Assembly (NCBI GenBank): GCA_043821645.1
Contig: JBDRCO010000072.1
Location: 79,962-143,961 of the forward strand
Direction: 5' to 3'
Length of the DNA: 64,000 bases
Origin: Pseudomonadota bacterium
GTDB taxonomy: Bacteria > Myxococcota > JACRCW01 > JAFGSX01
Shown here piece by piece: positions 21,907-40,039 of this stretch. The notes below the pieces were generated by a model. It was not told where the DNA came from and searched no databases. It was given only the letters and a program-made list of their open reading frames with translations. How positions within the stretch are numbered: position 1 is the first letter of the stretch; the number at the start of each line of letters is the position of its first letter. The position numbers and the translations under genes are program-made.

Positions 21907-22002
21907 TGCGACCCGGTCCAGGTTGCCTGTATCGTAGCCTGCCTGTTCAGGTGCGCAAAACTGCAGGTGGCGTGTCGTCCACGGAACCGGGAAGCATCGC
22001 TC

Positions 22003-23208
22003 GTGCTCGCTTGCTCCAGCATCCTGCTTGCTGCTCATCTGGCCCTGGCCAGCGCTCCCCGCGCGGCCATCCTGTCCCTCGACGACGGGGAGCAGGTCCC
22101 GGCGCAGCAGGCAGCCATCGAGGCGAGCCTGGCGGTCCGCGGCTACAGCAGCATCGACAGTGTGGATGCCCGCAGGTTGCTCGGCGACGAGCCTCCCGAG
22201 CAGGATGCCCAGGCGCTGGCCATCGAGGCCAAGAAAGCCTTTGGCGACTTCGATAGCACCACCGCACGCGAACGTCTGCGACAGGCCCAGGACATTCTGT
22301 TTGAATCGCCACGCATCCTTTCCGAGCGCACGCTGCTGGCGGACCTGCACCTGCTCGAGGGCCAGATCGCGCTCAGCGCGGGGCAGCACGACGAGGCCCT
22401 GCAGGCCCTGGCCCGCGCGGCACTGCTCGAGCCGGACAGGACCCTGCACCCCGGGCTGTATCCGCCGGACCTCATCGAGTCCTACACCGAGGCCCAGGAT
22501 TGGCTGAAGACCCAGGCCCAGGGCGCACTGGTGGTGACGACCTGGCCGGAGCATGCGCATGTCTACGTCGACGGCGTGTTCCGCGGCGAGGCGCCGGCGG
22601 TGATCGAAGGTCTGCCCGCAGGCTGGCACTACGCCACAGCCGCCGTGGATGGTCGGGGCGCGCGCACGCGGCCTTTCCTCGTCGAGGGAGGGCGCTCCAC
22701 ACAGACCACGCTGTTCGTGCCGGATGAAGCGGTCCGGGAGCAGCTCCCTTCGCTGCTGCGACGCTACCGGGCCCAGCCGGACGATGCCGATGTCGCCGCC
22801 AGGTTGCTCACCGCGGTGGGTGCACAGCTCCTCGTCGCCACGGGCACGAGCCACGACGCGGCGGCCCAGATTCTCGACGACGATCAGGCCGCGGTGGTCG
22901 TGGAGCCCGTCCTGGCGTCCACGATCGCCATCGAGGCGCGGGTCGACAAGCTCCTCGAAGCCCTCAGGAAAAAGCGCCCGGCCTCGCTGCCCGGCGTGGG
23001 CACCACAGCCACCTCGGACAGTCCACCGGCCTCGCTCGACCCGTCCGGCGATGGGGCTCCCTCACCCTGGCCCTGGATTGCCGCCGGGGCCGCAGGCCTG
23101 GTACTCGCAGGTGGAGTCACCGCCGCCATCGCCATCGCCATCGCCCTGGGGCAGCCCGAGGAGCCGGAGGATCGCGTCGATATCTACCTCGGGGGGCCCA
23201 GCCTGTGA
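22003..23208 (+). CDS. Secreted protein with TPR-like helices, PEGA-like domain and C-terminal TM
   Basis: Track ORF 21397..23208; earliest plausible start after the divergent kinase gene is GTG at 22003 (VLACSSILLAAHLALASA signal-like); PEGA-like VVTTWPEHAHVYVDGVFRGEAP...; C-terminal helix WIAAGAAGLVLAGGVTAAIAIAIAL. Confidence 0.45.
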   Translation: MLACSSILLAAHLALASAPRAAILSLDDGEQVPAQQAAIEASLAVRGYSSIDSVDARRLLGDEPPEQDAQALAIEAKKAFGDFDSTTARERLRQAQDILFESPRILSERTLLADLHLLEGQIALSAGQHDEALQALARAALLEPDRTLHPGLYPPDLIESYTEAQDWLKTQAQGALVVTTWPEHAHVYVDGVFRGEAPAVIEGLPAGWHYATAAVDGRGARTRPFLVEGGRSTQTTLFVPDEAVREQLPSLLRRYRAQPDDADVAARLLTAVGAQLLVATGTSHDAAAQILDDDQAAVVVEPVLASTIAIEARVDKLLEALRKKRPASLPGVGTTATSDSPPASLDPSGDGAPSPWPWIAAGAAGLVLAGGVTAAIAIAIALGQPEEPEDRVDIYLGGPSL

Positions 23209-24129: not shown

Positions 24130-24981
24130 TCAGGCCAGAGCCACGGCCTCGGCCACCACCACCTGCCCGCGGTCCTCCCGCACCCTGCAGGCCGCCACCA
24201 CCGGGTCGTGCTCGAAGACCAGGATCCAGTTGTCCTCGACCGCCTGGGCCAGGATGGCTTTCTTCTCCTCGATGGTGGTCAGGGGATACAGGTCATAGCC
24301 CATGACCCACGGGATGCGCAGATGGGCTGTGGTCGGGATCACGTCGCCACAATACAGCAGGGTCTCGCCGCCACCCCGAACCCGTACCAGCTGCTGACCC
24401 ACGCTGTGTCCCTCGCTGACCAGCACCTCGACACCGTCGAAGATCTCGGTATCTCCGTCGAGCAGGTGCAGCCGGCCGCTGCGCGCGAGCAGGGTCACCT
24501 CGTCGAGCTTGAACGAACCGCGATCCTTCTCACTGGCGTGCTCTGCCCACTTGAAGTGCCGGCGCTGCAGGTGGTGGGTCGCCTCGGAAAATGTCGGCAC
24601 GAGGGTGCCCGCGCCATCCCGGCGCACGATGCCTCCGGCATGATCGAAATGCAGGTGGGTCAAGATCACATCCGTGACCTCGTCCGGCGCGACGCCGATG
24701 CGCTGCAGGGCGCCCAGGACACCTCCAGCCACGGGAGCCAGGTCGTAGATATCCTGCTCGCGCTCGCTCCAGTTCTCGCCGGCGCCGGTGTCGACCAGGA
24801 CCAGCCGACCGGCCACCCGCAGCAACAGGCAGCGCAGTGCCAGCGGGATGCGATTGCGCACATCCGCAGCGATCTGCTTCTCCCACAGCGGCTTGGGAAC
24901 GACGCCAAACATGGCGCCACCGTCGAGCGCGAAGCGTCCCATCTCGATCGTTCGAACCTCGATCTCGCCCAGCTGTCGCAT
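24130..24981 (-). CDS. MBL-fold metallo-hydrolase
   Basis: HxHxDH zinc motif (LTHLHFDHAGG) and downstream His/Asp ligands; start taken at MRQLGEIEV. Confidence 0.6.
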   Translation of the reverse strand: MRQLGEIEVRTIEMGRFALDGGAMFGVVPKPLWEKQIAADVRNRIPLALRCLLLRVAGRLVLVDTGAGENWSEREQDIYDLAPVAGGVLGALQRIGVAPDEVTDVILTHLHFDHAGGIVRRDGAGTLVPTFSEATHHLQRRHFKWAEHASEKDRGSFKLDEVTLLARSGRLHLLDGDTEIFDGVEVLVSEGHSVGQQLVRVRGGGETLLYCGDVIPTTAHLRIPWVMGYDLYPLTTIEEKKAILAQAVEDNWILVFEHDPVVAACRVREDRGQVVVAEAVALA

Positions 24982-25138
24982 CCTCGAACCTCGCACCTCA
25001 GACGTCCTGGTCGACCCCCTGGCACCTCGTCAATTCTGGGCCGTTCTCGCTCGAGCTGCAACGCTGGCGCTCGCGGGCACCGACGCCAGCGGCTTTCCTT
25101 GCACGCGGCCGCCGGAACGCGATACCACAGGAAAGGTG

Positions 25139-27019
25139 ATGCCACGCCAGCGCCACAGATGCGTGTTTTCGCGATACCGGACCAGGGCCGGTGCACTGTT
25201 CCTGTGCCTGACCCTGGCGTGTGAGCACACACCAATCAAACCGGACGAGACCAGCACCTTGACCCGGAGGTCGGCAAAGGACACGTCCCTGGCGACGCTG
25301 CCTGCCGACGAGGTTCGATTCATCTCCTCCGAGGCTTACTACCACTTCTTGCAGGGACAGCTTGCGGCCGATGCTGGGCAGTGTGAGCGCGCGATCGAGC
25401 ATTATCGAGAGGCCCTGTCCTTCGATCCGGACTCGGCACACCTGCACGTGCTCTGTGGCCGCTGCCTGCTTCGACTCGGACGCCTGGACGACAGCCTGCG
25501 CGAGGCCAGACGCGCCGTGGCACTCGATCCGTCGGGTGCCGATGCCTCCCTGCTGCTGGCCCGCGGCCTGATGCTCGCGCGGGATCTGCCGCAGGCCGCG
25601 CAGGTGCTCAAACGCGCCGCCGAGGCACACCCGGAGACCACGAGTCTCGTCGAACTGCAGGCGGAGATTGCCCTGGACCGGGGTCAGGACGAGTACGCGC
25701 TGCAGCTGATGCAGCGGCTCGCGACCCACGACCCCTCGGATCCGCGCCCAACCCTTGCTCTCGGCTTGTTGTTGCTGCGCCAGACCCGCTGGGAACTCGC
25801 GGCCCAGGCCCTGGAGCAGACACTGCAACGCGACCCCGATTCCCTCGACGCCATGGACGCCCTGACCCGAGCCTACGAGCACCTGGACCGCCGCGAAGAC
25901 GCCGCACGGGTGGCTGCACGCCGTCTCGATCTGACCCCGGACGACCGGGATGCCATCTATTCCTTCATGCGCCTGCAGGCGCGGACAGGTCAGCTGGGTC
26001 CCGCACAGGTGCTGATGCAGCGCTGGCACGACGAGGAAGGGAGCGCGGAGCTTTGGGTGGCGGCGGCCCAGGGACTGGCGGACGGAGGCGCCGACGCCAG
26101 CGCGGTCACGGTTCTCGACGAGATCCTGGCACGCGAACCGGATCTGGACCTGGCCCTGTTTACCGCAGGAAGCCTGCATGCGCGACACGGCCGCCTGAAA
26201 CGCGCCGATACCCTCCTGCGCCGCCTCGAGCCCGGTTCTCCACTCTTCTCCGAAGCGCAGGTCGAGCGCAGTCGCGTGCTGTGGCGCATGGGACGCCTCC
26301 GGGAATCGCGGGAGGTCCTGGAGCAAGCCCGCACCAGCGTCCCCGACAGCCTCGAGATAAGCCTGGCTCTCGCCGATGTCCTCGCCCGCCAGCAACAGTA
26401 CGAGAGGGCCTTCGCCATTCTCGAAGAGCTCCCCGTGCCCGCCCTGGGCCGCGAACTGGTCGTGGCGGCGCGCTCGCAGCTGCTGGCCGAGATGGGTCGT
26501 GCCGACGAGAGCGTGCAGGTTGTGTCTGACCTGGTGGCCCTGCGCCCCGACGATGCCGACCTGCTGGTGCTGCTGGCCATCGCCTACGAGCGCGCCGGAC
26601 GAAAAGCCGAGAGCGAGGGTGCGGCGCGCCAGGCCCTCACTGCCATGCCGGACCATGTGGCCGCCCAGAACTTCCTGGCCTACACCCTGGCTCAGCACGG
26701 GGACAGGCTGGACGAGGCCGTAGAACTCGCCCGGAGGGCGGTGTCGACCAGTCCAGACGACGGCTACATCGTCGACACTCTGGGTTTCGTGCTGCTGCAG
26801 CAGGGAAGCGTGGCTGAGGCCAGACAGGTCTTGCTCAGGGCAAATGAACTCAGCCCCGACGAGCCAGAGATCCTCCTGCACCTGGGAGATACGGAGCGCG
26901 CTCTGGGTCAACACCACAGCGCCCTGAAACGCTACCGCCGCGCACTCCAGCTGAGCCCGCGCGAGCGAAGCGTCCGCGAGGCGGTGCAGGAGCGCTTGAC
27001 CCGAGGAGGCTCGAGGTGA
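25139..27019 (+). CDS. TPR-repeat lipoprotein
   Basis: Track ORF 24788..27019; start at MPRQRHRCVFSRYRTRAGALFLCLTLAC (ATG 25139); more than 12 TPR-like units across 620 aa. Confidence 0.6.
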   Translation: MPRQRHRCVFSRYRTRAGALFLCLTLACEHTPIKPDETSTLTRRSAKDTSLATLPADEVRFISSEAYYHFLQGQLAADAGQCERAIEHYREALSFDPDSAHLHVLCGRCLLRLGRLDDSLREARRAVALDPSGADASLLLARGLMLARDLPQAAQVLKRAAEAHPETTSLVELQAEIALDRGQDEYALQLMQRLATHDPSDPRPTLALGLLLLRQTRWELAAQALEQTLQRDPDSLDAMDALTRAYEHLDRREDAARVAARRLDLTPDDRDAIYSFMRLQARTGQLGPAQVLMQRWHDEEGSAELWVAAAQGLADGGADASAVTVLDEILAREPDLDLALFTAGSLHARHGRLKRADTLLRRLEPGSPLFSEAQVERSRVLWRMGRLRESREVLEQARTSVPDSLEISLALADVLARQQQYERAFAILEELPVPALGRELVVAARSQLLAEMGRADESVQVVSDLVALRPDDADLLVLLAIAYERAGRKAESEGAARQALTAMPDHVAAQNFLAYTLAQHGDRLDEAVELARRAVSTSPDDGYIVDTLGFVLLQQGSVAEARQVLLRANELSPDEPEILLHLGDTERALGQHHSALKRYRRALQLSPRERSVREAVQERLTRGGSR

Positions 27020-27834
27020 CCCGGCACACTGTGCGTCGTCGGTTTCCAGCACCGCTGACCTTTGCTGTCGCGCTTGGTGTGCTCACCACGTCGGGGTGTC
27101 CGCACCCTGCCTCTCCCATCCCGCGCCTGGCCGGCGTCGAGCCGGCGGATCTGCTCGCGCGTCTGCAGGTCGCGTGGGATAAACCTCGCCAGGCGGTGGG
27201 CCTGGTCCTGCTGGAGTATCTGGCGAGCGACGGCTTTTTTCGCGGCGAGGCTGACGTGGCTGTGCAACGGCCGCGGAACCTGCGCATCGAGCTGCGGTCC
27301 TTCTTCGGGCAGCCGGCCGGGGCGCTGGTTTGTGATGGGCGACGTTACACCTTCGTGGACAACACCAGGGCGATCAGCCAGTCCGGCCCGCTGGACGACC
27401 CGGCCCTGCGTGCCCTGCTCCCCCTAGGGCTCGACGCCACGACGACGGTCTCGCTGCTCCTCGGAGGGCTCCCCGCCCTCGGACCCGGCTCCACCTCCTA
27501 CATCAAACCGCAACGACCTCCACACCTGGCGCTGCGGCACGACGACGAGGCAGGGCGCTGGCTGCTCGAGCTCGACGACAGGGCCGAGCGTCTGCTCCAG
27601 GTCGAGCACCAGGACAGCCGGGGCGATCTGCGCTTCCGGGCGCGCTTTGACGGCGCCGACTCCAGAGGCACCGTACGCTTCTCGCGCAAGGGTGAGGTCG
27701 AGGTGCGCGGGCGTGCAGGTGCCGTGAGCTGGGCTTGGAAGGACGTCGAGCTGGACGGTGAGGCCTTGCCGGCCGAGGCCTGGCAACTCAATCTACCAGG
27801 CAGCAGTTCCGACGACGACCAGAGCGAGGATTGA
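27016..27834 (+). CDS. Lipoprotein, possibly LolA/LolB-like fold
   Basis: Lipobox LGVLTTSGCP; beta-rich; start overlaps TPR stop. Fold assignment is a guess from architecture and adjacency to a TPR gene. Confidence 0.4.
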   Translation: MTRHTVRRRFPAPLTFAVALGVLTTSGCPHPASPIPRLAGVEPADLLARLQVAWDKPRQAVGLVLLEYLASDGFFRGEADVAVQRPRNLRIELRSFFGQPAGALVCDGRRYTFVDNTRAISQSGPLDDPALRALLPLGLDATTTVSLLLGGLPALGPGSTSYIKPQRPPHLALRHDDEAGRWLLELDDRAERLLQVEHQDSRGDLRFRARFDGADSRGTVRFSRKGEVEVRGRAGAVSWAWKDVELDGEALPAEAWQLNLPGSSSDDDQSED

Positions 27835-27938: not shown

Positions 27939-28712
27939 ATGGATCGACGCATCCGGTTGGGCGAATTACTGCTGCGTGCGGGGCTGATCACCGAGATGCA
28001 GCTCAAGGCCGCCCTCGCGGAGCAGAAGAAGTGGGGAGGACGGCTGGGCACTATCCTCGTCAACATGAATTTCATCTCAGAGGATATCCTGGTCAAGGGC
28101 CTGGCACGCTTGCTCGAAGTGCCCCGGGCGGACTTCGAGAACATGAACGTGCCCGACGTGGTCCTGCAGCGCTTCGACCCCACCGACTGCCAGACCCGTG
28201 GCTACCTCCCGGTGCAGTACAGCCACGCAGAGAAGAAGCTCACCGTGGCATTCGTCGACGTCAACGATCTCGCCCTCGTCGACGAGCTGCGGTTCAAGCA
28301 CGGCCTCAACATTCAGCCCGCCATCACCGGCGAGCACGCCCTGCAGGCCTCGTTGCGCAGTCTTTTTTACAGCGAGGCGCTGGACGCGAGTGTCACCGGC
28401 CAGGAGCCTGGGCTCAAGCTCATCGACAGTCGCGGCGGGACCCTGGTCAAGAACCGCGCGGAGATCTTTGGCAACGAGCCTCCGCCGGCGCCGGTGGCCA
28501 CCACGGGGGTTGAGCGTGCACCCGCCGGTGTGGCCGCGGCCCTGCCGCCCCCCCCGGTGGGCGGGATCCCCGCAGGACTGCTCAACGAGCTCGAGATCGC
28601 GCAGCGGCGCCAGTCCAGAGCCATCAAGACCGTCCTGGAGCTCCTGATCGAGAAGGGAGTGATCTCTCGCGAGGAGTTCGTCGCCAGCGTCAACAAGCGC
28701 AGCGACAGTTAG
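27939..28712 (+). CDS. MshEN (T2SS GspE N-terminal) domain protein, predicted c-di-GMP receptor
   Basis: N-terminal RLGELLLRAGLITEMQLKAALAEQ fits the 24-residue MshEN motif RLGxx(L/I)(L/I)xxG(L/I)(L/I)xxxxLxxxLxxQ; followed by GGRLGTILV...ISEDILVKGLARLL second motif and remainder of a GspE_N fold; Pro/Ala-rich linker and short C-terminal helix. Confidence 0.65.
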   Translation: MDRRIRLGELLLRAGLITEMQLKAALAEQKKWGGRLGTILVNMNFISEDILVKGLARLLEVPRADFENMNVPDVVLQRFDPTDCQTRGYLPVQYSHAEKKLTVAFVDVNDLALVDELRFKHGLNIQPAITGEHALQASLRSLFYSEALDASVTGQEPGLKLIDSRGGTLVKNRAEIFGNEPPPAPVATTGVERAPAGVAAALPPPPVGGIPAGLLNELEIAQRRQSRAIKTVLELLIEKGVISREEFVASVNKRSDS

Positions 28713-28767
28713 GAGACTCAAACGGGCCGCTCGTCGATGACACGGCGGTGCGCACCCGGAGCGACTC

Positions 28768-31700
28768 ATGGCGCAGCGGAAACGTCTCGGCGACTACCTC
28801 ATCGAGGCTGGCATCATCGACCAGTTCCAGCTGCAGTCTGCGCTGGGGCATCAGAGGCAGTGGGGTGGCAAGCTCGGCCGGATCCTGGTCGAGAATCGCT
28901 TCGTCAAGGAAGACGTGATGGTGCGCGCGCTGTCCGAGCTGCTCCGCATCGATGCCGTCGAACTCTCCTTGATGACCATCCACGCCCGGGTCATCGAGCT
29001 GGTGCCCGTGGACATGGCCGAGCGCTTCGGGCTGATCCCGGTGGCACTCAAGCGCGAGAAAGCAGGCGAGTTCGTCTACATCGCCATGAGCGATCCCACC
29101 AATCTCGAGGCCGTCGACGCCATCCAGTTCAAGACCGGCAAGAAGGTCAGGTCGATGATCGCGGGGGACAGCGCGATCGATCGCGCCATCCGCCACTACT
29201 ATTACGGAGAGACCCCCCGCGAGACAGCCAGCACACCGGCCGGACAGGTCCAGTTCTCGGGCCGCGAGATCGCGCTGTCGCCTACCCATACGCCGCCTAC
29301 CCAGGCAGCGGTGCAGGCCCCTGCGGCGGCGGGCCACCCGGCGCTCGTGGTCCCTCCTCCGGCGACCTCGCAAGGTGCCATGCCGACGCCCCCTGTTCAT
29401 CCTTTCGCGGGGCAGCCCCAGCCAGCGCTCGCTCTCCCGGACGACGACGACGACATTCCTCTGATCACGGGCACTCCGGCGGGACCAGCGACGGCAGATG
29501 ACTGGTTCTTGCCTGGTGCACCCGCTCCGGCACAGGCACTCGCAACGGCTGTTTCAGCCCCACCTGTACCTGCGACGCCCGCAGTTCCCCCAGCGCTTCC
29601 CGTCGGGCCGGCCCCGCAGCAGCAGGCACCGGTGATCCTGGATGCGCGAGAATTGACGGCCGTGAATCCGCCCGAGGCGCCATTGCCGAACGCAGCGAGC
29701 GTGCTCTCTCCTTCTCAGGTGCCTCCCCCGACGCCAGTGTCGGCCTCCTCGAGTCTTTTTGGCCCGGCCGGGGGCCTCCTGGGGGGTGAGGATGCTGGAC
29801 CGGGTTTGTCGGCGCCGCGGCAGGATGTGGCATTCGGAACGCTGGAACTCCCGACACCGGGTGCTGGGACGGCTGCGACGAGACCGCCGGCGGCGAGGAC
29901 TCCGCCTGTGCAACCCGCAACCGCAGGTCCGGCCCCTGCAGGTCTGGGGCACGTCGAACCGCCGGACGCTGCCGGCACTCCAGCGGTCCTGGACAGCAAT
30001 CTTCTGCAACCCATCAAGGAACCTGCAGTCGCCAACGCTGTGCTGGGTGAGATGGAGTTTGCTGCCCCTGAAAGCCCGCCGAGCGCATCCACCGCACCGG
30101 GGCTGGAGCCTGGTGTGATCCCGGATCGATTCCCGGCGTCAGCGCCACTTCCGGAGCATCTTCTCGCCGCCTCGGGAATGGCATCCTTCGATCTGGGGCC
30201 CGGTGACGACGATCCGCTCGAATTGGACCTCCCGGGCACACCTGTCGCCACGCCGGGGCCTGCCACCTCCACCTTGACGGTGGCTCCGAACTATGAGGTT
30301 GACCTCGGACCCGAGTCCGCTGCGATTCCCCTCGACGAGGCGACATCTCCGGCCCCGCACTCCAGATCCCCTGTGTCCGACGACGGCAGTGCTGCGGCCA
30401 TGCCCGGGGCGGTCCTCGCCGCGTCGGGACTGGCAGACTTCGAACTCGACGAGGATGGCAGCAGCATCGAGCTCGACTTCGACACCCCGACCCCAGACGA
30501 CGCGCAGTCCGCGACCCCCGCGGATCCTCTGGCGAGCATGCTTCCTGTACAGCACGCGAGCGATGAGCCCCTCGAGAGCCGCACCGAGCCCGAGAGCCCT
30601 GGGGTTGACGACAGCCTGAGTTTCGTCCCCCTCGCTCCTCCCCAGCGTGTCTCCGCCGCGGCCGCCCAAGCTGCGACCATCACCCCGAGTATACCGGTGC
30701 AGGAGAACTCCTCGGCCGCCGAGACAGAGGCAGCGGTCACGGCGGACCCTGTCGACGTGCCGCCCCCGAGCGGCAGGGACCCGTCCGGGTTGGAGCTGGT
30801 CCCTCCGGTGTCCACGGCCTTCTCCTTCGAAGACCTGGATCGGCCCCCCGCCGACGCGGTTCCCCTCGGCACCGGCCCCGACCTCGAGGTGGTTCAAGCC
30901 GAGGAGATTAAGCGGCTGGACGCTCCGAGCCACAGTCCTCAGCTGGAGACGATCCCAGCCCAGGCTGACGATTCACCGGACGCCTCTCTGCGGGAGAAGA
31001 CAGAGACCCCAGCGGCGGTCGAAGATCCGCCCCTGCCAGACCTCCCGATGGAGGTCTTCAGCGATGTCGTCGACGTGGACGCACCGCCAGTGCTGGTCAC
31101 CCCTGCACGTCTGGCGGATCCCGCGGTCGAGACCCCAGCCCCGCCGCTGCCAGAGCGCACAACCGCTCCGGAGGTGGAAGGAGCACAGGCACCTCGACGC
31201 CCGCTGCCGCCAGACCCTGTGGCGGAGGCCTCGCTGGTCGCACTCGAGGACGGAGCCAGCGACGATCTCAGCGACCTCGACTTCTCGCTCGACATCGAGG
31301 ACCCACCTCCACCCCTGGCTGCGCGTGTGCCGAAAGAGCTGCAGGCCACCGAGGAACCCGCGGTACACGAAGGGGCCGCGTCCTCCGAGCAAGCACCTCC
31401 ACTCGAACTCAGCCCCACCACCCCGGCACTCATGACCGGGGGCAGCCCGGATATCGAACCGGGACAGGGCGTGAGCGACGATCTTTTGATCCCCGAAGTG
31501 CCTGCGCAGGACCTGGCCGAGGACACCGAGGACAGCACCGTCACCGATGGTGACGAACACGCGACGATGCACGATCCCGCGTCTGATACCCAGGCACCCC
31601 AGGAGCAAAGCCCGATGTCCGGCCTGGAGCGCACGATCGAAGACGCAGCGCCACAGGACACGGAACCAGCCAGCCCAGGCGTCTCCGCTCCACCCAGCGC

Positions 31701-33006
31701 ACTCACTCCCGTCGACACCCAGACCATGGATCTGGCCCAGGGGGCCTTTGACCCGTCGAACTGGAGTCTGGATGCCTTCCCCGAATCGCTCCCAGCAGCA
31801 TCGGTGGCAGCCCCTGCACCGATCGAGGACAAATTCGCCGAGCCTGCCGGCGCGATGCCGGGCCCGGAGGATCAGGACTTCGAATCCATCGTCGACTTCT
31901 CGGAGTCAGACTTTCCGAGCGAGGCCCAGAGTCAGGACGCCGTGCTGGGAGAGGAGGATGAGGACGTCGATTCCATCATCGATTTCAAGGAATCGGACTC
32001 CCCGCGCGAGGTCCAGGGTCCGGAGACCGCGCCGGGACCGGAAGCGGACGAGTTCGTGTCCATCCTTGACTTCTCGGAGTCGGACTCCCCGCGCGAGGCC
32101 CAGAGTCCGGAGCCCAGTGCTCCCGTCGCTGACGCTCCAGCCTCCGATGGTCCGATGCCGGCGACGATCGGCCGCGTGGAAGGTGAACCGAACGCGGCTT
32201 CCGTCTCCGATGATGAAGAAGCCTCGGACCTGGACCTGGGCGAGGATCTGCCAAACTCCGAGCCCATCTCGCTGCTACCTCCACCACCCAACTTCTCCTC
32301 GGCCTCCGCCCTGCTCTCCGCACTGGACCAGGGAGAGGATCTCCCCGACCTCGAGCAGCCAGACGCCTGGATAGATGCACCGGCGGCACCGATCGCGCGG
32401 GACCCGTCCGAGGCCTCCCTGGCCCGGTTCCACGACGACGCCGACCCGAGCGATGCGCTCGACCTCCCATTTGACGCGGAGCAGGCACCCTCGCCCGCTC
32501 CCAGTGCCACGACAGTCCTGGATGAGCCGCCATCCTCCAGCCACCCGATCGAGGATCTGAGCTCGGCCCTCGACGTGGCTTTCCCGGACCTCACCCTCGA
32601 TCCCCCGACGGAAGACAGCGTGCCACCGTCTCTCCCGGCAGCTGGGAGTCGGCTGCCAGAGGTCGCCCTGGACGCGCTCGGGGATGACATCGACGCGGTC
32701 GCGACGGAATTTCAGCTCGACCCACCGGCGAGCGAGCCCGCGATGACCCTGTCTGGATCTGACGTCGCGGTGCTACCCGAACTCCAGCTCGAGGGCCCGG
32801 AGCTGGCAGACGAATCCTTGACGGCCTCAGCGTCAGGGCCAGCCACCGAGAAGACGACGACACATCCGGTCCTGGCACCCGATGTGGAGGCTCTGCTCGA
32901 CAATATCGATGCCGCCAAGATGCCCGCGGTCCTCAAGCTGCTGCTGGAAAAGGGTCTGCTCTCCCTCGAGGACATCGAGGCGACCCTGGGCAAGAAGAAG
33001 GACTGA
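28768..33006 (+). CDS. Giant MshEN-domain protein with about 1200-aa acidic Pro/Ala/Glu/Asp-rich low-complexity region
   Basis: N-terminal RLGDYLIEAGIIDQFQLQSALGHQ (MshEN motif) and full GspE_N-like domain (about 155 aa); then continuous low-complexity P/A/E/D/S-rich sequence to near the C-terminus, ending in a conserved-looking helix MPAVLKLLLEKGLLSLEDIEATLGKKKD. Confidence 0.65.
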   Translation: MAQRKRLGDYLIEAGIIDQFQLQSALGHQRQWGGKLGRILVENRFVKEDVMVRALSELLRIDAVELSLMTIHARVIELVPVDMAERFGLIPVALKREKAGEFVYIAMSDPTNLEAVDAIQFKTGKKVRSMIAGDSAIDRAIRHYYYGETPRETASTPAGQVQFSGREIALSPTHTPPTQAAVQAPAAAGHPALVVPPPATSQGAMPTPPVHPFAGQPQPALALPDDDDDIPLITGTPAGPATADDWFLPGAPAPAQALATAVSAPPVPATPAVPPALPVGPAPQQQAPVILDARELTAVNPPEAPLPNAASVLSPSQVPPPTPVSASSSLFGPAGGLLGGEDAGPGLSAPRQDVAFGTLELPTPGAGTAATRPPAARTPPVQPATAGPAPAGLGHVEPPDAAGTPAVLDSNLLQPIKEPAVANAVLGEMEFAAPESPPSASTAPGLEPGVIPDRFPASAPLPEHLLAASGMASFDLGPGDDDPLELDLPGTPVATPGPATSTLTVAPNYEVDLGPESAAIPLDEATSPAPHSRSPVSDDGSAAAMPGAVLAASGLADFELDEDGSSIELDFDTPTPDDAQSATPADPLASMLPVQHASDEPLESRTEPESPGVDDSLSFVPLAPPQRVSAAAAQAATITPSIPVQENSSAAETEAAVTADPVDVPPPSGRDPSGLELVPPVSTAFSFEDLDRPPADAVPLGTGPDLEVVQAEEIKRLDAPSHSPQLETIPAQADDSPDASLREKTETPAAVEDPPLPDLPMEVFSDVVDVDAPPVLVTPARLADPAVETPAPPLPERTTAPEVEGAQAPRRPLPPDPVAEASLVALEDGASDDLSDLDFSLDIEDPPPPLAARVPKELQATEEPAVHEGAASSEQAPPLELSPTTPALMTGGSPDIEPGQGVSDDLLIPEVPAQDLAEDTEDSTVTDGDEHATMHDPASDTQAPQEQSPMSGLERTIEDAAPQDTEPASPGVSAPPSALTPVDTQTMDLAQGAFDPSNWSLDAFPESLPAASVAAPAPIEDKFAEPAGAMPGPEDQDFESIVDFSESDFPSEAQSQDAVLGEEDEDVDSIIDFKESDSPREVQGPETAPGPEADEFVSILDFSESDSPREAQSPEPSAPVADAPASDGPMPATIGRVEGEPNAASVSDDEEASDLDLGEDLPNSEPISLLPPPPNFSSASALLSALDQGEDLPDLEQPDAWIDAPAAPIARDPSEASLARFHDDADPSDALDLPFDAEQAPSPAPSATTVLDEPPSSSHPIEDLSSALDVAFPDLTLDPPTEDSVPPSLPAAGSRLPEVALDALGDDIDAVATEFQLDPPASEPAMTLSGSDVAVLPELQLEGPELADESLTASASGPATEKTTTHPVLAPDVEALLDNIDAAKMPAVLKLLLEKGLLSLEDIEATLGKKKD
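31876..32115 (+). repeat. Three tandem about 75-bp coding repeats inside the giant gene
   Basis: Peptide units ESIVDFSESDFPSEAQSQD / DSIIDFKESDSPREVQGPE / VSILDFSESDSPREAQSPE; DNA units share ...gacttctcggagtc(a/g)gact(tt/cc)cc...gaggcccagagtc.... Confidence 0.5.
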
Positions 33007-33040: not shown

Positions 33041-33409
33041 TCAGTCTTCTCCGCGCGCTGCCACGATGGTGTCAATGAGCTGTCGGCTCTCGTCGTCGAG
33101 GCTGAGGAACTCGATACCCATGCCTGGCACCTGATCGGCACTCGCCTGGGCGCTGGCCCACACGACGCGACCGATGCCCTCGATGAGAGGCATCCCATCT
33201 GCCAGGGCAAAGCGCAGGTAGATGGTCGAGCCGATCGCATGCGGCGAATCGGTGCGCAGGAACAGTCCCCCGGCCGACAGGTCGGTCGCGATCTCTTCCA
33301 TGAAGGCTTCGAGGGTCTCGAAGCGGTGCTGAACCAGGAGGTTGAGCGGGACGCGACGGTGGCGACGCCGGTCCTTCGGATCAGACGATGCCCCATGCGG
33401 CTTTGCCAT
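33041..33409 (-). CDS. Single-domain PilZ protein, predicted c-di-GMP receptor
   Basis: C-terminal 122 codons of track ORF 33041..34276; start MAKPHG (ATG 33409); RxxxR motif (DRRRHRRV) followed about 25 aa later by DxSxxG (DLSAGG). Confidence 0.65.
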   Translation of the reverse strand: MAKPHGASSDPKDRRRHRRVPLNLLVQHRFETLEAFMEEIATDLSAGGLFLRTDSPHAIGSTIYLRFALADGMPLIEGIGRVVWASAQASADQVPGMGIEFLSLDDESRQLIDTIVAARGED

Positions 33410-33463
33410 CCCTGACCTCCCTGTGCCTGGCGTGCTGCATGAGTCTAGCGCGAATTCAGTTCG

Positions 33464-33498
33464 GGTAAAAAAGAAGACGCTCGCGCGCCAGGTGCCGG
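33464..33498 (-). terminator. Candidate intrinsic terminator after the metallophosphoesterase-like gene
   Basis: On the minus strand a GC-rich segment (ggcgcgcgagcg) is followed by a U-rich run (ucuucuuuuuua); stem is imperfect. Confidence 0.25.
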
Positions 33499-33500
33499 GC

Positions 33501-34565
33501 TCAGGGCTGCAGGGCCGCACGCTGGGCTGCCACCTCCGGGTCATCGGGAAGCCGGGCATCGAGCTCAAGCAGCCGGTAGCGGTAGCGGGTCTTGCCACGC
33601 TGTCTCTCGAGCCAGGCGGCAGTCTCCGCCTGCTCTGCGCGCGCCTGTGCATCCTCGGGCCTGCGCACGAGTCTCTGCACCGCCAGCTCCCGGCGCTCCC
33701 GCGCGTCCTCGGTGACGGCCCCGCCACGCCAGGTGGCGTCACCCCGAACAGCCCACACCTCGAACTGGACGAGGTAGTGACCTTGCTGGCCGGCGGCCAC
33801 CACGGGCACGCTGCTGCCGTCCCTCTCCGGGTGCTGGCCAGGCCGGGCCTCCTCGCGAGGCAGAAAAGAAACCAGCCCACGCTGGGCGACCAGCACCACC
33901 GACACCTGTGGCAACCCCTGCGCCAGCCTGGCCGCGGCGTCGGAGGACATGCGTGCCACCAGCACCACATGATCACCGGGCCGGGCCACCTTCGCCAGCA
34001 CCCCGCGCAGCGCAGGCAGGGCGGGTGTCGGGTCCAGGCCCGTCGCGGGTGGCCAGTTGGCCGGATCCAGCGCACTGACGACGACGATACGCTGCCCACC
34101 GAGCTGCCGCACCACGTGGCTCTGGTAGGCCGGTCGGCGATCCGCGACCCGCACCAGGTTGCTGGCCACCACGGGGAGCTTGTACGCGCGCACCAGCTCG
34201 TCGAAGCGCGCAAGCCCCAGGCCGAGGTCACCCGGCCCGGGTACCAGCGCATCCAGCTCAGCCCTGTGGAGAGCACTTGCGATCACACGTGCCCGCGCCA
34301 GCGCAAGGACGCCATTGTCCCCTGGCGACGCCGCCTCGTCGAAGAAGCTGTTACCACCCTCGATGTGGAGCACGGGTCCGCGCTCCCGCAGTGCCCGGAT
34401 CGTTCCCACCTGCCTGGCCAGACCGCCAAGCGGACCACTGGGTCAGCCACAGGGGTCGAGGGCCCCCTCCCGGTCGTGGGCATAAAGCACCGTGAAGCTC
34501 ACGGGCTCGTCGTCGAGGTTGGCGGCGCAGAGCAGGACAGACGCCACCACGGCCAGGGCGTGCAT
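33501..34565 (-). pseudogene. Metallophosphoesterase/5-prime-nucleotidase-like gene interrupted by in-frame TGA, catalytic motifs degenerate
   Basis: Signal peptide + FTVLYAHDREGALDPCG (ORF 34443..34706, start ATG 34565) is in the same frame as ORF 33501..34409 but separated by TGA at 34443-34445; downstream sequence continues ...PSGPLGGLARQVGTIRAL...; expected GDxxD/GNHE metal ligands are replaced (LHIEGGNSFF, PGPGDLGLG). Confidence 0.4.
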
Positions 34566-34572
34566 GCTTCGC

Positions 34573-35889
34573 TCAGCCCGTGATCTCGGCGTTGCCTGGG
34601 CGGATGGCCTGCGGCCCGAAGGGGCAGCGTTGGAGCCGGATGTGCTCCTCGAACTCGTGCCGGAACTTCTTGACGAAGGCTCGGGCCGGGATCGCGGCCG
34701 CGTCACCCAGCGGGCAGATGGTGTTGCCGAGGATGTTGGCGGCGACCTCGTCGAACAGCGTGATGTCCTCGCTGCTTCCGTGGCCCTGCTCGACCCGGGT
34801 CGCCATCTTGGCGATCCAGTGCGTGCCCTCGCGGCAGGGCGTGCACTGCCCGCAGGACTCGTGGGCGTAGAAGCGCATCAGCCGGGCGGTCAGGCGCACC
34901 GTGCAGGTACTCTCGTCGAGGACCGCGGCACAGCCTGTGCCCAGCATGGTGCCCGCCTTCGACATGGCATCAAAAGTGAGAGGCACATCGATCTCGTCTG
35001 GAAGCAGCACCGGTGTCGACGAACCGCCGGGGATCACACCCTTGAGCGCCTTGCCATCGCGCAGACCCCCGCCATGCTCGAAGATCAGTTCCTTGAGCGA
35101 GATGCCCTGGGGGAGTTCCCACAGACCGGGCCTCGCCACGTGGCCAGAGGCGCCGTACAGCTTGGTGCCCACACCGCCGTTGACGCCCAGGCTCTTCCAG
35201 GCGTCGGCACCACGCTCGAGGATGTGCGGCACCTGGGCCAGGGTCTCGACGTTATTGACGATGGTGGGCTGGCCAAACACGCCGACCACTGCGGGAAACG
35301 GAGGCTTGAGACGCGGCTTGCCCGGTTTCCCTTCGATGGACTCGATGAGCGCGGTCTCCTCGCCACAGACGTAAGCGCCTGCACCACGATGCACGAAGAC
35401 GTCGAGGTCGAAACCTTTACCCAGGATGTTCTTGCCCAGATAGTGCGCGTCCACGGCCTCGGCGATGGCCTGCTCCAGGCGTCGGGCGATGGCGTGAAAC
35501 TCGCCGCGAATATAGATGTAGGCCGTATGGGCGCCGATGGCATGGCAGGCGATCGCGATGCCCTCGAGCATCATGTGGGGATCGCGGTCCATGATGTAAC
35601 GATCTTTGTATGTGCCCGGCTCACCCTCGTCAGCGTTGATGCACAGGTAGCGGGGACCGGGCTTGTCCTTGGGCACGAAGCTCCACTTCATGCCCGTCGA
35701 GAAGCCGGCGCCGCCCATGCCGCGCAGTCCTGACTTCTTGACCTCCTCGATGAGGTCGCCCGGAGCCATGGCCAGGGCCTTTGCCAGCGACGTGTAGCCG
35801 CCACCCTGCAGGTAGGTCTTGAGCGTGTGGCTCTCGGGCTTGCCCCAGTTGCGCGACAGCAGTCGCTCGCCCATTGCGTACCTCGTCAT
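34573..35889 (-). CDS. nuoF: NADH-quinone oxidoreductase subunit F (51 kDa flavoprotein)
   Basis: Full-length NuoF-like sequence: YLCINADEGEPGTYKDRYIM, GAGAYVCGEETALIESIEGK, 4Fe-4S ligands ESCGQCTPCREG. Confidence 0.8.
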   Translation of the reverse strand: MTRYAMGERLLSRNWGKPESHTLKTYLQGGGYTSLAKALAMAPGDLIEEVKKSGLRGMGGAGFSTGMKWSFVPKDKPGPRYLCINADEGEPGTYKDRYIMDRDPHMMLEGIAIACHAIGAHTAYIYIRGEFHAIARRLEQAIAEAVDAHYLGKNILGKGFDLDVFVHRGAGAYVCGEETALIESIEGKPGKPRLKPPFPAVVGVFGQPTIVNNVETLAQVPHILERGADAWKSLGVNGGVGTKLYGASGHVARPGLWELPQGISLKELIFEHGGGLRDGKALKGVIPGGSSTPVLLPDEIDVPLTFDAMSKAGTMLGTGCAAVLDESTCTVRLTARLMRFYAHESCGQCTPCREGTHWIAKMATRVEQGHGSSEDITLFDEVAANILGNTICPLGDAAAIPARAFVKKFRHEFEEHIRLQRCPFGPQAIRPGNAEITG

Positions 35890-35916: not shown

Positions 35917-36384
35917 TCAGTCGGCGGCCCGCAGCACCGCCGCCACCTTCTCAGGGGTCATGTTCTCGTGAAAATCGCCGTCCACCTGCAGGGCAGGCGC
36001 CGTGCCACAGGAGCCCAGGCACTCGACCTCGTGAACGGTGAAACGGCCGTCGGCGGTGGTCTCTCCCGGCTTGACGCCGAGTTCGTGGCACACGCTGTCG
36101 AGCAGTTCCTGACCGCCGGTGAGGTGGCAGGACAGGTTGGTGCAGATCTCGACCAGGTGCTTTCCGACGGGGTGCTTGTGGTACATGGTGTACCAGGTCG
36201 CCACCTCGCGCACCCGGATCTCGTCGAGCTCGAGCAGCGCCGCCACCTCGCGCACGCCCTCGTCGTCGACCAGCTCGCGCTCACGCTGCACCACGTAAAG
36301 CGCGGGCAGGGTGGCTGCCGCCCGATCCGGGTAGCGTGTCTTGAGGGATGCGATCTCCTTCTTGGATGCCTCGCTCAGAGCCAT
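35917..36384 (-). CDS. nuoE: NADH-quinone oxidoreductase subunit E (24 kDa, 2Fe-2S)
   Basis: Thioredoxin-like 2Fe-2S pattern CTNLSCHLTGG ... ECLGSCGTAP; immediately upstream of nuoF on the same strand. Confidence 0.75.
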   Translation of the reverse strand: MALSEASKKEIASLKTRYPDRAAATLPALYVVQRERELVDDEGVREVAALLELDEIRVREVATWYTMYHKHPVGKHLVEICTNLSCHLTGGQELLDSVCHELGVKPGETTADGRFTVHEVECLGSCGTAPALQVDGDFHENMTPEKVAAVLRAAD

Positions 36385-37969: not shown

Positions 37970-40039
37970 TTGCTTCGCACGGAGGCGATGACGGATCGCA
38001 TGCCAACCCTGTCCTGCATCCCACGCAGCCGCGGCCTCGCCCGCGCCGCAACCCGTGTCGGGCTGGTGCTGGCCTGCGCGGTGTTCGGGGCGCCCGCCGT
38101 GGCGCAGGAGGCCGATCTGTTCGGGCTCGGCGAGGACGAGGGCGACGACGTGGCCAGTGTCCCCATGGTCATCGGTTTGCGCCCCGCCAGCGCCACCGTG
38201 CTCACCGGCGAGGATCTGCTGCGCCAGGGCTACCGCACCCTGGGCGATGCCCTGGCCGATGTGGTGGGCATCGACCTGCAGCGCACCACCCAGGAAAGGC
38301 GCTACGGCCTGCGCGGTATCCCCGACGGCATCCTGCTGGTCATCGACGGAGTGCCGACCCTGGTCGATGGCGAGCGCGACGTGCTCGACGTGGACGAGGG
38401 CCTGGATCTCAACGATGTGGAGCGGGTCGAGGTGATCCGCGGCCCGTCCTCGGCGGTCCACGGCGTGGCCTCGCTCTCCGGTGTGGTGCAGGTGACCACG
38501 CGTCGCCCCGGGCTGACCAGTGCACGGCTCCGCCTGGGCACCACCCACCTGGGCGAGCGCGAGGTCAGCGCCGACGGCACGGTGCGCTATGACGTGGCCG
38601 CCCTGCGCGCGTCGGTGCTCCACCGCGAAGGGCCCAATGGTGTGTGGCGCCTGGAGAACGTCCCCACACGCTTCATCCGGGTGGGGCGCGCGGTGGTTCC
38701 CTCGACCAAGGAGAACACCGAGATCATTCCCCAGGACGACAGCACCACCCACCTCCGGCTGACCGGCAGCATTGGAGCACTGCAGCTCGACGGGCGTTTC
38801 AGCCGCAGCGACGTGCACACTCCCATCTCCAGCTTCAGCCATGGCCTGCTGTCGACGGGCCCCCAGCAGCGGCAGCTGCGCGAACGCCAGCGCATGCAGC
38901 TGAGCTGGAACCGCCACCTGGGCCCACTGTTCGTCGAGACCTCCGCCTACGGCGCGCGCAACCTGCGCACGGACCTGATCGTGCTGTACCCGTCCCGCGG
39001 GCTGTTTCCGACGGGGGGCAGTGTCACCGTCGACAGTGAGGCCGACACTGCGGGCCTGTTGCTCACCGCGGGCGTGCCTGTGCTGCGCGACCACCGGCTG
39101 CTGCTGACCTGCTTCGGCGACCTGACCCGACAGTGGGCCGTGACCCGCGCGGTGGACCCCGAAGAGGAACGCGTGTACCCGCGACTGGTCGAGTTCGACG
39201 AGCTCACCGGCACGGCCACCGCAGCCTTCGAGTACCAGGGTGACTTCGGAGCGGGCTGGCATCTGACGGCGGGCGCCGCGGTGGAGTGGCGCACCGGCTA
39301 TGGCGCAGCCCTGGTGCCCCGGGCTTCCCTGAGCTACCTGCCGCTGTCCTGGCTCGCCCTGCGCGCATCGTACGCCGAGGGCTCGCGCACCCCGGACCGC
39401 TACGACCTGGCCTTGCTCACCCAGGCCGTGATCGCTGGCCGCGCCATCGGCGCCGGTGTCAATCCCGACCTGCAGCCCGAGCACGCGCGCAGCCTCGAGC
39501 TGGCGTTGCGTCTGGAGCCGTCGGCTCAGCTTCACGCCGAGCTTGACCTGTTTGCCTCACGCCACGAGAACGCCATCGAGCCAGAGATCGTGGGTGCGCG
39601 CATGGTGCCGCAGAACCTGCCTCCCCGGCTGGTCCTCGGCGGCGAGCTGTCGACGGAGATCGAGGCCATCCCGACCCTGCTGCACCTGGGTGCGGGTGTG
39701 GCTCTGGCACGGACCGTCGATGGACCCGCGCTGGAAAACCGCTTGCTGCTGGTGACCGCCACGGCCGAGGTGACACCCCTGACCGGTATCGCGCTGGGTG
39801 CGCGCGGCCGCGCCGGCTGGCGAGAGCAGAGCGATGCCGCATCGGGAACCTCGGGGAACGCCGAGATCTTTGGCTCGTACCGCGCCCTCGACGAGCGGCT
39901 GAGCTTCTCGCTGGTGCTGCGCAACGCCATCGATGGGCAGGACGATTCCCCGGACGTCGCCGTGCTCACCGGGACCTCTGACGTGGCCATCCCCAGCCGC
40001 GGCCGCGTGCTGTTCGTCGCCATCGAGGGCCGCCTGTGA
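37970..40039 (+). CDS. TonB-dependent outer-membrane receptor
   Basis: Signal peptide (VGLVLACAVFGAPAVAQ), plug-domain motifs (VIGLRPASATVLTGEDL, ERVEVIRGPSSAVHGVASLSGVVQVTT), long beta-barrel. Start may be 37988 or 38000. Confidence 0.65.
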   Translation: MLRTEAMTDRMPTLSCIPRSRGLARAATRVGLVLACAVFGAPAVAQEADLFGLGEDEGDDVASVPMVIGLRPASATVLTGEDLLRQGYRTLGDALADVVGIDLQRTTQERRYGLRGIPDGILLVIDGVPTLVDGERDVLDVDEGLDLNDVERVEVIRGPSSAVHGVASLSGVVQVTTRRPGLTSARLRLGTTHLGEREVSADGTVRYDVAALRASVLHREGPNGVWRLENVPTRFIRVGRAVVPSTKENTEIIPQDDSTTHLRLTGSIGALQLDGRFSRSDVHTPISSFSHGLLSTGPQQRQLRERQRMQLSWNRHLGPLFVETSAYGARNLRTDLIVLYPSRGLFPTGGSVTVDSEADTAGLLLTAGVPVLRDHRLLLTCFGDLTRQWAVTRAVDPEEERVYPRLVEFDELTGTATAAFEYQGDFGAGWHLTAGAAVEWRTGYGAALVPRASLSYLPLSWLALRASYAEGSRTPDRYDLALLTQAVIAGRAIGAGVNPDLQPEHARSLELALRLEPSAQLHAELDLFASRHENAIEPEIVGARMVPQNLPPRLVLGGELSTEIEAIPTLLHLGAGVALARTVDGPALENRLLLVTATAEVTPLTGIALGARGRAGWREQSDAASGTSGNAEIFGSYRALDERLSFSLVLRNAIDGQDDSPDVAVLTGTSDVAIPSRGRVLFVAIEGRL

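Follow-up and report, generated by a model that had tools for sequence, protein, structure and literature searches.

A 1412-residue myxococcal protein with an MshEN head, a very long acidic disordered chain and a conserved C-terminal hairpin

The gene described here lies at positions 28768-33006 on the forward strand of a 64,000-nucleotide (nt) stretch of DNA, hereafter the window, which covers positions 79,962 to 143,961 of contig JBDRCO010000072.1 (assembly GCA_043821645.1) from a bacterium placed by GTDB in the Myxococcota. Its product of 1412 amino acids (aa), the focal protein, consists of an N-terminal MshEN domain, a proline-rich acidic chain of about 1200 residues that is predicted to be disordered, and a conserved C-terminal helix-turn-helix hairpin. 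A first-pass annotation of this DNA had described a folded, predicted nucleotide-binding head of the GspE_N type on an acidic low-complexity body that ends in a short amphipathic helix, and had suggested a role as scaffold, spacer or phase-separating element. We have followed up this description by domain and structure searches, structure prediction and comparison with homologues.

The gene and the three parts of its product

The features of the focal gene and of its immediate upstream neighbor, all on the plus strand, are as follows.

27939..28712, plus strand: tandem miniature paralogue of 257 aa, a conserved partner gene (open reading frame; MshEN; NF053729 74.5 bits)
28758..28761, plus strand: Shine-Dalgarno-like GGAG, 6 nt 5' of the focal ATG (sequence inspection)
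28768..33006, plus strand: focal gene for the 1412-aa protein with MshEN head, disordered region and hairpin (open reading frame with ATG start and a single terminal stop)
28783..28941, plus strand: MshEN_N module, aa 6-58, with two 24-residue motifs of the c-di-GMP type and the 5-residue spacer RQWGG (regular expression; NF053729)
28945..29211, plus strand: MshEN_C alpha/beta subdomain, aa 60-148 (PF05157; Pfam, PDB sequence matches, model, Foldseek)
29233..29601, plus strand: conserved post-head extension, aa 156-278 (alignment, motifs, model)
29287..32883, plus strand: polyanionic Pro/Ala-rich body, aa 174-1372, predicted to be disordered (composition and model; no orthologue alignment)
29758..29784, plus strand: short motif FGPAGGLLG, aa 331-339, present in 11 of 49 long forms (motif comparison)
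31851..32111, plus strand: three tandem 87-nt (29-aa) units with 76 % DNA identity and the core S-I-(V/I/L)-D-F-(S/K)-E-S-D (repeat search)
32287..32328, plus strand: the sole predicted helix inside the body, aa 1174-1187, confidence about 57-63 (AlphaFold2)
32884..33003, plus strand: conserved helix-turn-helix tail, aa 1373-1412 (...PAVLKLLLEKGLLSLEDIEATLGKKKD) (alignment; hhalign)

The stretch 28768-33006 is one real gene encoding 1412 aa. The translation is identical to an NCBI entry from a metagenome-assembled genome (MAG), "MAG: hypothetical protein ABIJ09_15820", on a 161-kb contig. Given the base composition of the stretch, a random codon is a stop with a probability of 0.021, so 1412 codons would stay open by chance with p = 1.3e-13. 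The remaining five frames contain 8-25 stops each; alternative coding frames were rejected on this ground, and the antisense open reading frames (ORFs) are the usual shadows of high-GC genes. The plus-strand ORF at 33342-34583 was also rejected as coding, as its translation is nonsense rich in R, H and W. In the 55-nt gap between the upstream paralogue and the focal gene, no terminator-like site was found.

It might still be argued that the protein is not a genuine single product but a high-GC frame artefact, an assembly or frameshift fusion, or a collapsed or expanded repeat. The sequence does come from a MAG, and the G+C content at third codon positions (GC3) is lower in the body (0.73) than in the head (0.877) or in reference genes (0.865). 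However, the same drop from head to body, by 0.05-0.15, recurs in eight of the eight homologues checked (L001, L002, L007, L008, L017, L020, L032 and L035), and the tail shares the reading frame of the head both here and in long forms that were assembled independently and differ in body length, of which 49 were compiled. Searches with TRF and for direct repeats found no near-identical repeats in the body, which is not a collapsed repeat; they returned only the one diverged 3 x 87-nt array, and an assembly or repeat artefact was rejected. Together with the length of the open frame, this makes an artefact, which the first-pass annotation had named as a possible refutation, very improbable. The body makes more frequent use of minor codons for Pro, Ala, Gly and Glu; relaxed selection or rapid turnover of insertions and deletions are possible causes of its lower GC3.

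The protein is cytoplasmic and not secreted. One source labels a homologue (P0018) as TonB-like, that is, as a proline-rich protein spanning the envelope. This identity was rejected for the focal protein because its N-terminus is a soluble MshEN domain. A Pfam scan gave no TonB_C match, and the AlphaFold2 model, which covers aa 1-1200 and ends before the C-terminal tail, predicts no helix outside the head other than 1174-1187, which counts against an N-terminal anchor and a TonB layout.

In the Pfam scan at E<=1, MshEN (PF05157) was the only domain found in the focal protein, at aa 60-148 (E 1.4e-16; 60.7 bits against a gathering score of 23.1). The preceding segment corresponds to the module that binds bis-(3'-5')-cyclic dimeric guanosine monophosphate (c-di-GMP) in MshEN receptors: NCBIfam NF053729, a model of this module with 53 positions, scores 65.7 bits against a cut-off of 38, with aa 6-57 aligned to model positions 1-52. 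Motif 1 (RLGDYLIEAGIIDQFQLQSALGHQ, R6-Q29) satisfies the strict consensus by regular expression, and motif 2 (KLGRILVENRFVKEDVMVRALSEL, K35-L58) retains the K-L-G start and the hydrophobic positions h6, h7, h11, h12, h17 and h21. In Vibrio cholerae MshE, mutagenesis has identified L10, G11, L25, G40, L54 and L58 as the residues that matter (PMC5013675). Their counterparts in the focal head are L7, G8, L22, G37, M51 and L55, all conserved or conservatively replaced.

The head is modeled with high confidence, with a predicted local distance difference test (pLDDT) of 92-97, as helices 7-13, 19-32, 36-42 and 48-59 followed by an alpha/beta unit, the same four-helix bundle and alpha/beta subdomain as in the MshE structure 5htl. 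The top structural match by Foldseek is MshE with c-di-GMP (5htl_B; E 3.4e-11, TM-score 0.80, root-mean-square deviation 2.7 A over 143 columns, 30 % identity), and matches on the focal model are confined to the head. By sequence, the best PDB matches are PilF (6.5e-30), PilB (7.5e-22) and MshE (5htl; 5.8e-14). We therefore read the head, from sequence and model, as an MshEN module of the c-di-GMP type that probably binds this nucleotide.

The two-subdomain fold and the tandem 24-residue motifs with a 5-residue spacer are common to the focal head and to the known MshEN receptors, V. cholerae MshE (5htl) and Thermus thermophilus PilF GSPII-B (PMC5013675). In contrast, what follows the focal head is about 1220 disordered acidic residues and a C-terminal hairpin that lacks the RLG element, with no ATPase or recognized output domain. 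The N-terminal domain is homologous to that of the PilB/GspE/MshE ATPases, and some databases label family members "GspE" or "PilB". However, an ATPase identity was rejected: the match to TIGR02538 is confined to aa 7-152 and scores 59.9 bits (cut-off 675.65), TIGR02533 reaches 14.7 bits against 630, and the T2SSE ATPase domain was not found by Pfam at E<=1. Two further differences from MshE concern the spacer, which is described as non-conserved in MshE (PMC5013675) and is strongly conserved as (R/K)(Q/K)WGG in the focal family, and motif 2, which is partly degenerate in the focal protein.

The body is strongly acidic. Residues 156-1380 contain 16.7 % P, 15.6 % A, 10.0 % D, 9.1 % S, 8.9 % L and 8.0 % E, with 220 D+E against 32 K+R, an isoelectric point of about 4.05 and a net charge of about -188, or -0.16 per residue. 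Aromatic residues make up 2.7 %, and K and R are absent from stretches of up to 127 aa. Residues 174-1170 have pLDDT values of 30-50 and no secondary structure by DSSP, and 959 of the 1200 modeled residues fall below 50. The post-head extension forms a beta-hairpin at 160-169 (VQFSGREI; pLDDT about 60-66) and carries the subclade-specific motifs DDIPLITG (aa 228) and DWFLP (aa 245); as a set, VQFxGxE, DDIPVITG, DWFLP and FGPxxxFLG are restricted to the focal subclade. Disordered regions of more than 1000 residues are unusual in bacterial cytoplasmic proteins.

The sequence of the body is not random. Acidic residues occur within four residues of F, W or Y at a frequency of 0.265, compared with 0.179 +/- 0.023 in shuffled sequences, and phi-[DES]-phi triplets number 29, about 2-fold the 14 +/- 3.5 expected; in neither case did any of 2000 shuffles reach the observed value. 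About 19 phi-acid-phi-acid motifs are present.

Such an acidic chain could itself be the effector, a nucleic-acid mimic or cation sink for basic (nucleoid-associated or ribosomal) proteins or divalent cations, with the head and tail serving only to regulate or anchor it. The strong acidity is conserved (the 49 long forms have a median net charge per residue of -0.17 and 15 % Pro), and the long run without basic residues fits this possibility. However, the high proline content and irregular charge spacing make the chain a poor mimic of DNA, family members whose linkers are only about 50-170 aa long would sequester next to nothing and yet possess the same ends, and no supporting gene context was found. 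We consider an effector role of the polyanion improbable.

The C-terminal tail appears to be related to the head. A profile of the family tail aligns in register with both MshEN_N motifs by hhalign (motif 1, Prob 91, score 27.0; motif 2, Prob 92.5, score 27.9). Column-shuffled controls scored 8.5 +/- 2.2 with a maximum of 20 (0 of 100 reached the observed scores), and reversed profiles scored 7-14. The tail lacks the RLG start, which is the guanine-contacting element of the MshEN_N motifs. It is thus read, on the basis of these profile alignments, as a third helix-turn-helix hairpin of the MshEN_N type, corresponding to half of a four-helix bundle. In the 257-aa paralogue, for which the AlphaFold2 model has a mean pLDDT of 82.9, the tail is predicted as two helices, 212-238 and 244-256 (pLDDT 81-94). 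L236 is invariant in the paralogue family, and E234, I237, G240, R244 and E246 are at least 90 % conserved. A phmmer search with the 46-aa tail of the paralogue against 1.84 billion representative sequences returned 19 matches, all of them family members or fragments.

The architecture given by the first-pass annotation, a folded GspE_N/MshEN head, a long acidic disordered body and a C-terminal helical element, is thus confirmed by Pfam, AlphaFold2, composition and homologues, and the analysis of composition, isoelectric point and disorder that it called for agrees with it. Three of its statements need adjustment. The predicted ligand can be narrowed from a generic nucleotide to c-di-GMP, given the NF053729 score and the match to 5htl; the absence of a hydrophobic core is overstated, as ILVMFWYC residues still make up 21 % of the body (37 % of the head); and the C-terminal element is a conserved hairpin rather than a single amphipathic helix. 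The annotation had mentioned neither the small paralogue upstream nor the kinship between the tail and the MshEN_N repeat.

A family with constant ends and a linker of variable length

The family was defined by alignments and ORF extension over 80 loci, obtained from a homologue scan with one genome per species, together with 24 database proteins. Nearly all loci belong to Myxococcota or to MAGs labeled "Deltaproteobacteria"; the set includes Anaeromyxobacter, with the cultured A. oryzisoli, and some Nitrospirota. The family members have in common an MshEN head, in which the spacer reads (R/K)(Q/K)WGG, and a C-terminal hairpin of the pattern hhxxLhxxGhhxxxxh, joined by a linker that varies; the focal protein has all of these. 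The inter-motif spacer is near-invariant across the family: in 99 short-form sequences, W32 and G33 never vary and G34 reaches at least 90 % conservation, while every long form has G33 and G34.

The 257-aa paralogue, which ends 55 nt 5' of the focal gene, is a small version of the same design, with an MshEN head, a Pro-rich linker of about 70 aa and a tail of the focal type (AIKTVLELLIEKGVISREEFVASV). Its orthologues occur in cultured Stigmatella, Archangium, Myxococcus and Corallococcus and are annotated "GspE". By ORF extension, a short gene lies directly upstream of a long gene in 34 sources including the window, the other 33 being Myxococcota loci. Complete long forms measure 641-1152 aa in the loci examined and up to 1376 aa among database homologues, and the focal protein is the longest member of the family. 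In the cultured Myxococcus hansupus (L081, CP012109, 2621312-2642070), the gene after the short member encodes a 339-aa MshEN protein whose tail is of the same kind.

A neighbor-joining tree of the heads contains two clades that differ in their motifs. The "AEQ-xxWGG" clade includes the upstream short genes. The "GHQ-RQWGG" clade comprises proteins of 211-232 aa from Nitrospirota, proteins of 308-409 aa from Anaeromyxobacter, and, with few exceptions, the long forms, up to the 1412 aa of the focal protein. Within this second clade, the total length thus ranges from 211 to 1412 aa and the linker from about 50 to 1225 aa, a range of about 25-fold, with both ends kept. The tail is retained in position and pattern across the family. 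Even in comparison with the closest relative, L001, the alignable parts of the focal protein are only aa 1-~250/278 and 1373-1410; the alignment of the body fails, and its acidic Pro-rich composition is kept.

Relatives have tandem repeats of their own, for example about 30 EAEPAA units in L001. One subclade of long forms (P0004, P0006, P0007 and the L007 long form) has a CxxC...CxxC zinc-ribbon inside the disordered body, a conserved "AERPxxRxETDxR..." island and the tail variant "TPTMVMKLDPAEQKRLL". In the subclades of P0005, P0011, P0009 and P0021, the body is rich in Trp-acidic motifs (27 Trp in P0005) rather than the Phe-acidic motifs of the focal protein, which suggests convergent acquisition of multivalent short motifs that combine aromatic and acidic residues.

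MshEN heads on uncharacterized regions are also found in Myxococcus xanthus, in the MshEN-only proteins FrgA, MXAN_4666 and MXAN_4667. The latter two genes adjoin Kil cluster 2, the same position as that of the short gene and the 339-aa gene in M. hansupus, and they are the only adjacent pair of MshEN genes near this cluster in M. xanthus (PMC8844925, Table S1). On synteny alone, they are probably the M. xanthus orthologues of the short/long pair. In the second Myxococcus member, unlike in the focal protein, the linker is only about 150 aa long, and the spacer between the two motifs is not the same.

A possible c-di-GMP-responsive tether

A check called for in the first-pass annotation gave a positive result: the head and tail are kept while the length of the linker varies, which supports the role as spacer or scaffold that had been suggested for this protein. 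We tentatively propose, as the reading that we favor while holding it open to real doubt, that the focal protein is a cytoplasmic, two-ended tether or scaffold that responds to c-di-GMP. The head would sense the nucleotide through its 53-residue four-helix module, and its alpha/beta subdomain (MshEN_C) could offer a protein-docking surface, like those of PilB, GspE and MshE. Since the tail corresponds to half of an MshEN_N-like four-helix bundle, it would need a partner hairpin. The most economical candidates would be the tail of another long form, resulting in self-association, or that of the co-encoded 257-aa paralogue. The polyanionic Pro-rich chain of about 1200 residues between them would act as an entropic, electrostatically swollen and self-repelling spacer that holds the ends far apart, decorated with many weak phi-acid-phi motifs.

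A similar layout is known from PopZ, the polar scaffold of Caulobacter, which combines an interaction module, an acidic Pro-rich intrinsically disordered region (IDR) and, at the C-terminus, a helical element with a helix-turn-helix (PMC9512792). In the focal protein, too, an acidic Pro-rich IDR lies between an interaction module and a helical C-terminal module, and in both cases it is the composition of the IDR and not its sequence that is conserved. In PopZ, the acidic IDR has been shown experimentally to provide repulsion and the C-terminal helical domain attraction (Lasker et al. 2022, PMC9512792). By analogy, the focal protein would consist of an actor, an acidic spacer and a helical association module, with a spacer roughly 15-fold longer and a second-messenger sensor domain as the actor in place of the short helix of PopZ. 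The two systems differ in other respects as well: the PopZ IDR has 78 aa and a conserved length, whereas the focal-family linker spans about 50 to 1225 aa, and the PopZ oligomerization domain has three helices against one hairpin here. No sequence homology to PopZ was found in the Pfam scan of the focal protein at E<=1.

The resemblance to PopZ also raises the possibility that the protein is a condensate scaffold, in which tail oligomerization and multivalent phi-acid-phi motifs drive phase separation into a membraneless compartment regulated by c-di-GMP, possibly with the involvement of Mg2+, polyamines or basic proteins. The tripartite layout, the enrichment of phi-acid-phi-acid motifs and acid-flanked aromatics above shuffle levels, and the many Trp-acidic repeats of other subclades favor this idea. 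However, the acidic IDR of PopZ is repulsive, and a longer IDR gives more fluid and less dense condensates (PMC9512792). If the same holds here, about 1200 aa of linker carrying a charge of -188 should oppose homotypic condensation, and we therefore rank phase separation lower. The scarcity of aromatics, the low valency of a single hairpin and the wide range of linker lengths, which argues against tuned material properties, point in the same direction. Phase separation is thus the least supported of the roles put forward in the first-pass annotation, and we regard it as clearly unlikely.

Several observations weigh against a c-di-GMP-responsive tether. The low pLDDT over the body is a prediction, and by composition the body falls just barely to the disordered side in the Uversky measure (mean hydropathy 0.464 against a boundary of 0.472). 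The neighboring genes (LolB-like lipoprotein, PilZ, HD and Kil/Tad) point to no single machine, and full synteny is found only in L001. In the head, motif 2 fails the published relaxed regular expression, with R44 instead of G/A/S at the turn position 10 and L58 instead of Q at position 24.

The deviations in motif 2 raise the possibility that the head works without a ligand as a protein-interaction module, in the manner of XpsE-N or the N1 domain of GspE, and that c-di-GMP is irrelevant to it. The head could then dock on, or compete for, a partner of a PilB/GspE ATPase (PilZ, PilM or a GspL-like protein), with the acidic chain as a steric or electrostatic blocker. XpsE has lost binding through changes that include Q61V (Wang et al., PMC5013675), and Foldseek also matches the focal head to the Xanthomonas citri PilB(N)-PilZ complexes 7lkm and 7lko (E 5e-9 to 3e-8). 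Furthermore, a canonical PilZ gene lies convergent to the focal gene, 35 nt downstream, and is kept in L001. In the X. citri PilB(N)-PilZ-FimX system (7lkm/7lko; PMC8389850), an N-domain of the MshEN type binds a single-domain PilZ protein, and the focal gene adjoins a gene for a protein of this kind. As differences from that system, the PilZ protein here keeps the RxxxR and DxSxxG motifs, and the adjacency is not conserved across the whole focal family.

Conversely, the head passes the NF053729 c-di-GMP model by a wide margin, motif 1, the glycines of both RLG/KLG elements and the hydrophobic guanine-stacking positions are kept, and the best structural matches are c-di-GMP-bound forms. The position that is Leu in the focal motif 2 has Gln32 as its motif-1 counterpart in MshE, where changes of charged residues including Gln32 shifted the affinity less than 5-fold (PMC5013675). 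We consider a ligand-independent head unlikely, although less so than a condensate scaffold.

A more specific mechanism within the tether reading would be an exchange of the tail. The hairpin may swap with, or dock on, an MshEN_N bundle, either that of its own head, that of the head of the short paralogue, or one formed with another tail, and this exchange may be gated by c-di-GMP. This is a speculation that we place below the condensate scaffold and above the polyanionic effector in probability. If it is true, the messenger would control whether a loop opens or closes, or whether a heterodimer forms or falls apart, and the polyanionic chain spanning either structure would have up to 1225 residues. 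The protein would then work as an entropic tether gated by its ligand, and evolution would have adjusted the reach of such tethers across a 25-fold range. We know of no c-di-GMP receptor for which such an output has been described.

The receptors of c-di-GMP usually couple a sensor domain to an enzymatic, DNA-binding or machine-docking output. The output attached to the focal c-di-GMP-type sensor is instead about 1200 residues of polyanionic disorder of conserved composition and a small conserved clasp. If the tether model is correct, c-di-GMP signaling would gain a physical output in the form of tethering, spacing or exclusion. Already known are the MshEN domain itself and the fact that it is often fused to "previously uncharacterized domains". 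The combination of the head with an acidic IDR and an RLG-less hairpin, the short/long gene pair and the natural series of linker lengths appear to be undescribed: the literature search returned no paper describing this architecture, in line with the earlier impression that it belongs to no characterized family, none naming MXAN_4666/4667 and none linking MshEN to a disordered output. The architecture is clear, well supported and unusual, and the model is testable. The family, with constant ends and a natural series of linker lengths, is suited to tests of the effect of IDR length and charge in bacteria. It also yields a concrete hypothesis for Myxococcus, where two of the many uncharacterized MshEN proteins, probably MXAN_4666 and MXAN_4667, are accessible to experiment.

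Gene neighborhood

The genes flanking the pair and the signaling genes around the locus are listed below.

27016..27834, plus strand: LolB/DUF4292-like lipoprotein gene, 272 aa, directly upstream of the pair (context only)
33041..33409, minus strand: single-domain PilZ gene, 122 aa, convergent with the focal gene (TIGR02266 82.8 bits; RxxxR and DxSxxG present)
20383-22854 (minus), 42437-43828 (plus) and 14632-16512 (plus): signaling genes around the locus

The stop codons of the PilZ gene and the focal gene are separated by the 35 nt mentioned above. The mechanically called PilZ ORF (33041-34276) is too long, since its N-terminal extension is W/R-rich nonsense, and the true extent is 33041-33409. 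By analogy with X. citri PilB(N)-PilZ, the PilZ protein is a candidate partner of the focal protein.

The lipoprotein-like gene on the other side is overlapped by 4 nt by a gene for a 743-aa tetratricopeptide repeat protein (24788-27019, plus strand). The 272-aa protein has no Pfam match in the window copy, which is linked by tblastn (1e-8) to L001 alone, where the homologue likewise precedes the pair. A LolB/DUF4292-type family lies directly upstream of the MshEN pair in 19 further loci, where the likeness to the window copy is by eye only. The wider synteny of the window was found only in L001. A conserved operon beyond the pair was rejected, as other clades have PP2C-cNMP, weak HD-domain, extracytoplasmic function (ECF) sigma or Tad/Kil genes instead.

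In other clades, the genes downstream of the pair include one with a weak HD domain, a sigma/anti-sigma pair of the ECF type and some that are Tad/Kil-like. In L081 and among loci L008-L050, many pairs lie a few kb upstream of ECF sigma/anti-sigma and Tad/Kil-like genes (CpaB, TadB, TadE, FHA), and the M. hansupus pair is about 5 kb from TadE/Tad genes. In M. xanthus, Kil cluster 2 corresponds to MXAN_4648-4661 (PMC8460266), and MXAN_4666/4667 are expressed in growth and development (PMC8844925, Table S1). No Tad/Kil genes were found in the window, and we therefore claim no link to a Kil system.

Further downstream, a NuoF-like gene (Complex1_51K; 34573-35889, minus strand) and a NuoE-like gene (2Fe-2S thioredoxin-like; 35917-36384, minus strand) form a lone pair with no other nuo genes nearby. 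They are preceded by a 302-aa ORF (33501-34409) with a UshA-like match below threshold. The long ORFs at 40036-40911 (plus), 40315-40917 (minus) and 40755-42362 (minus) overlap and all have high GC3, and the gene calls are ambiguous; among them, only 40036-40911 has a Pfam match, a marginal one to ABC_sub_bind. The signaling genes of the window near the locus encode a Ser/Thr kinase with a PEGA domain, a sigma-54 response-regulator activator and a dCache-HAMP histidine kinase, and such surroundings are typical of Myxococcota.

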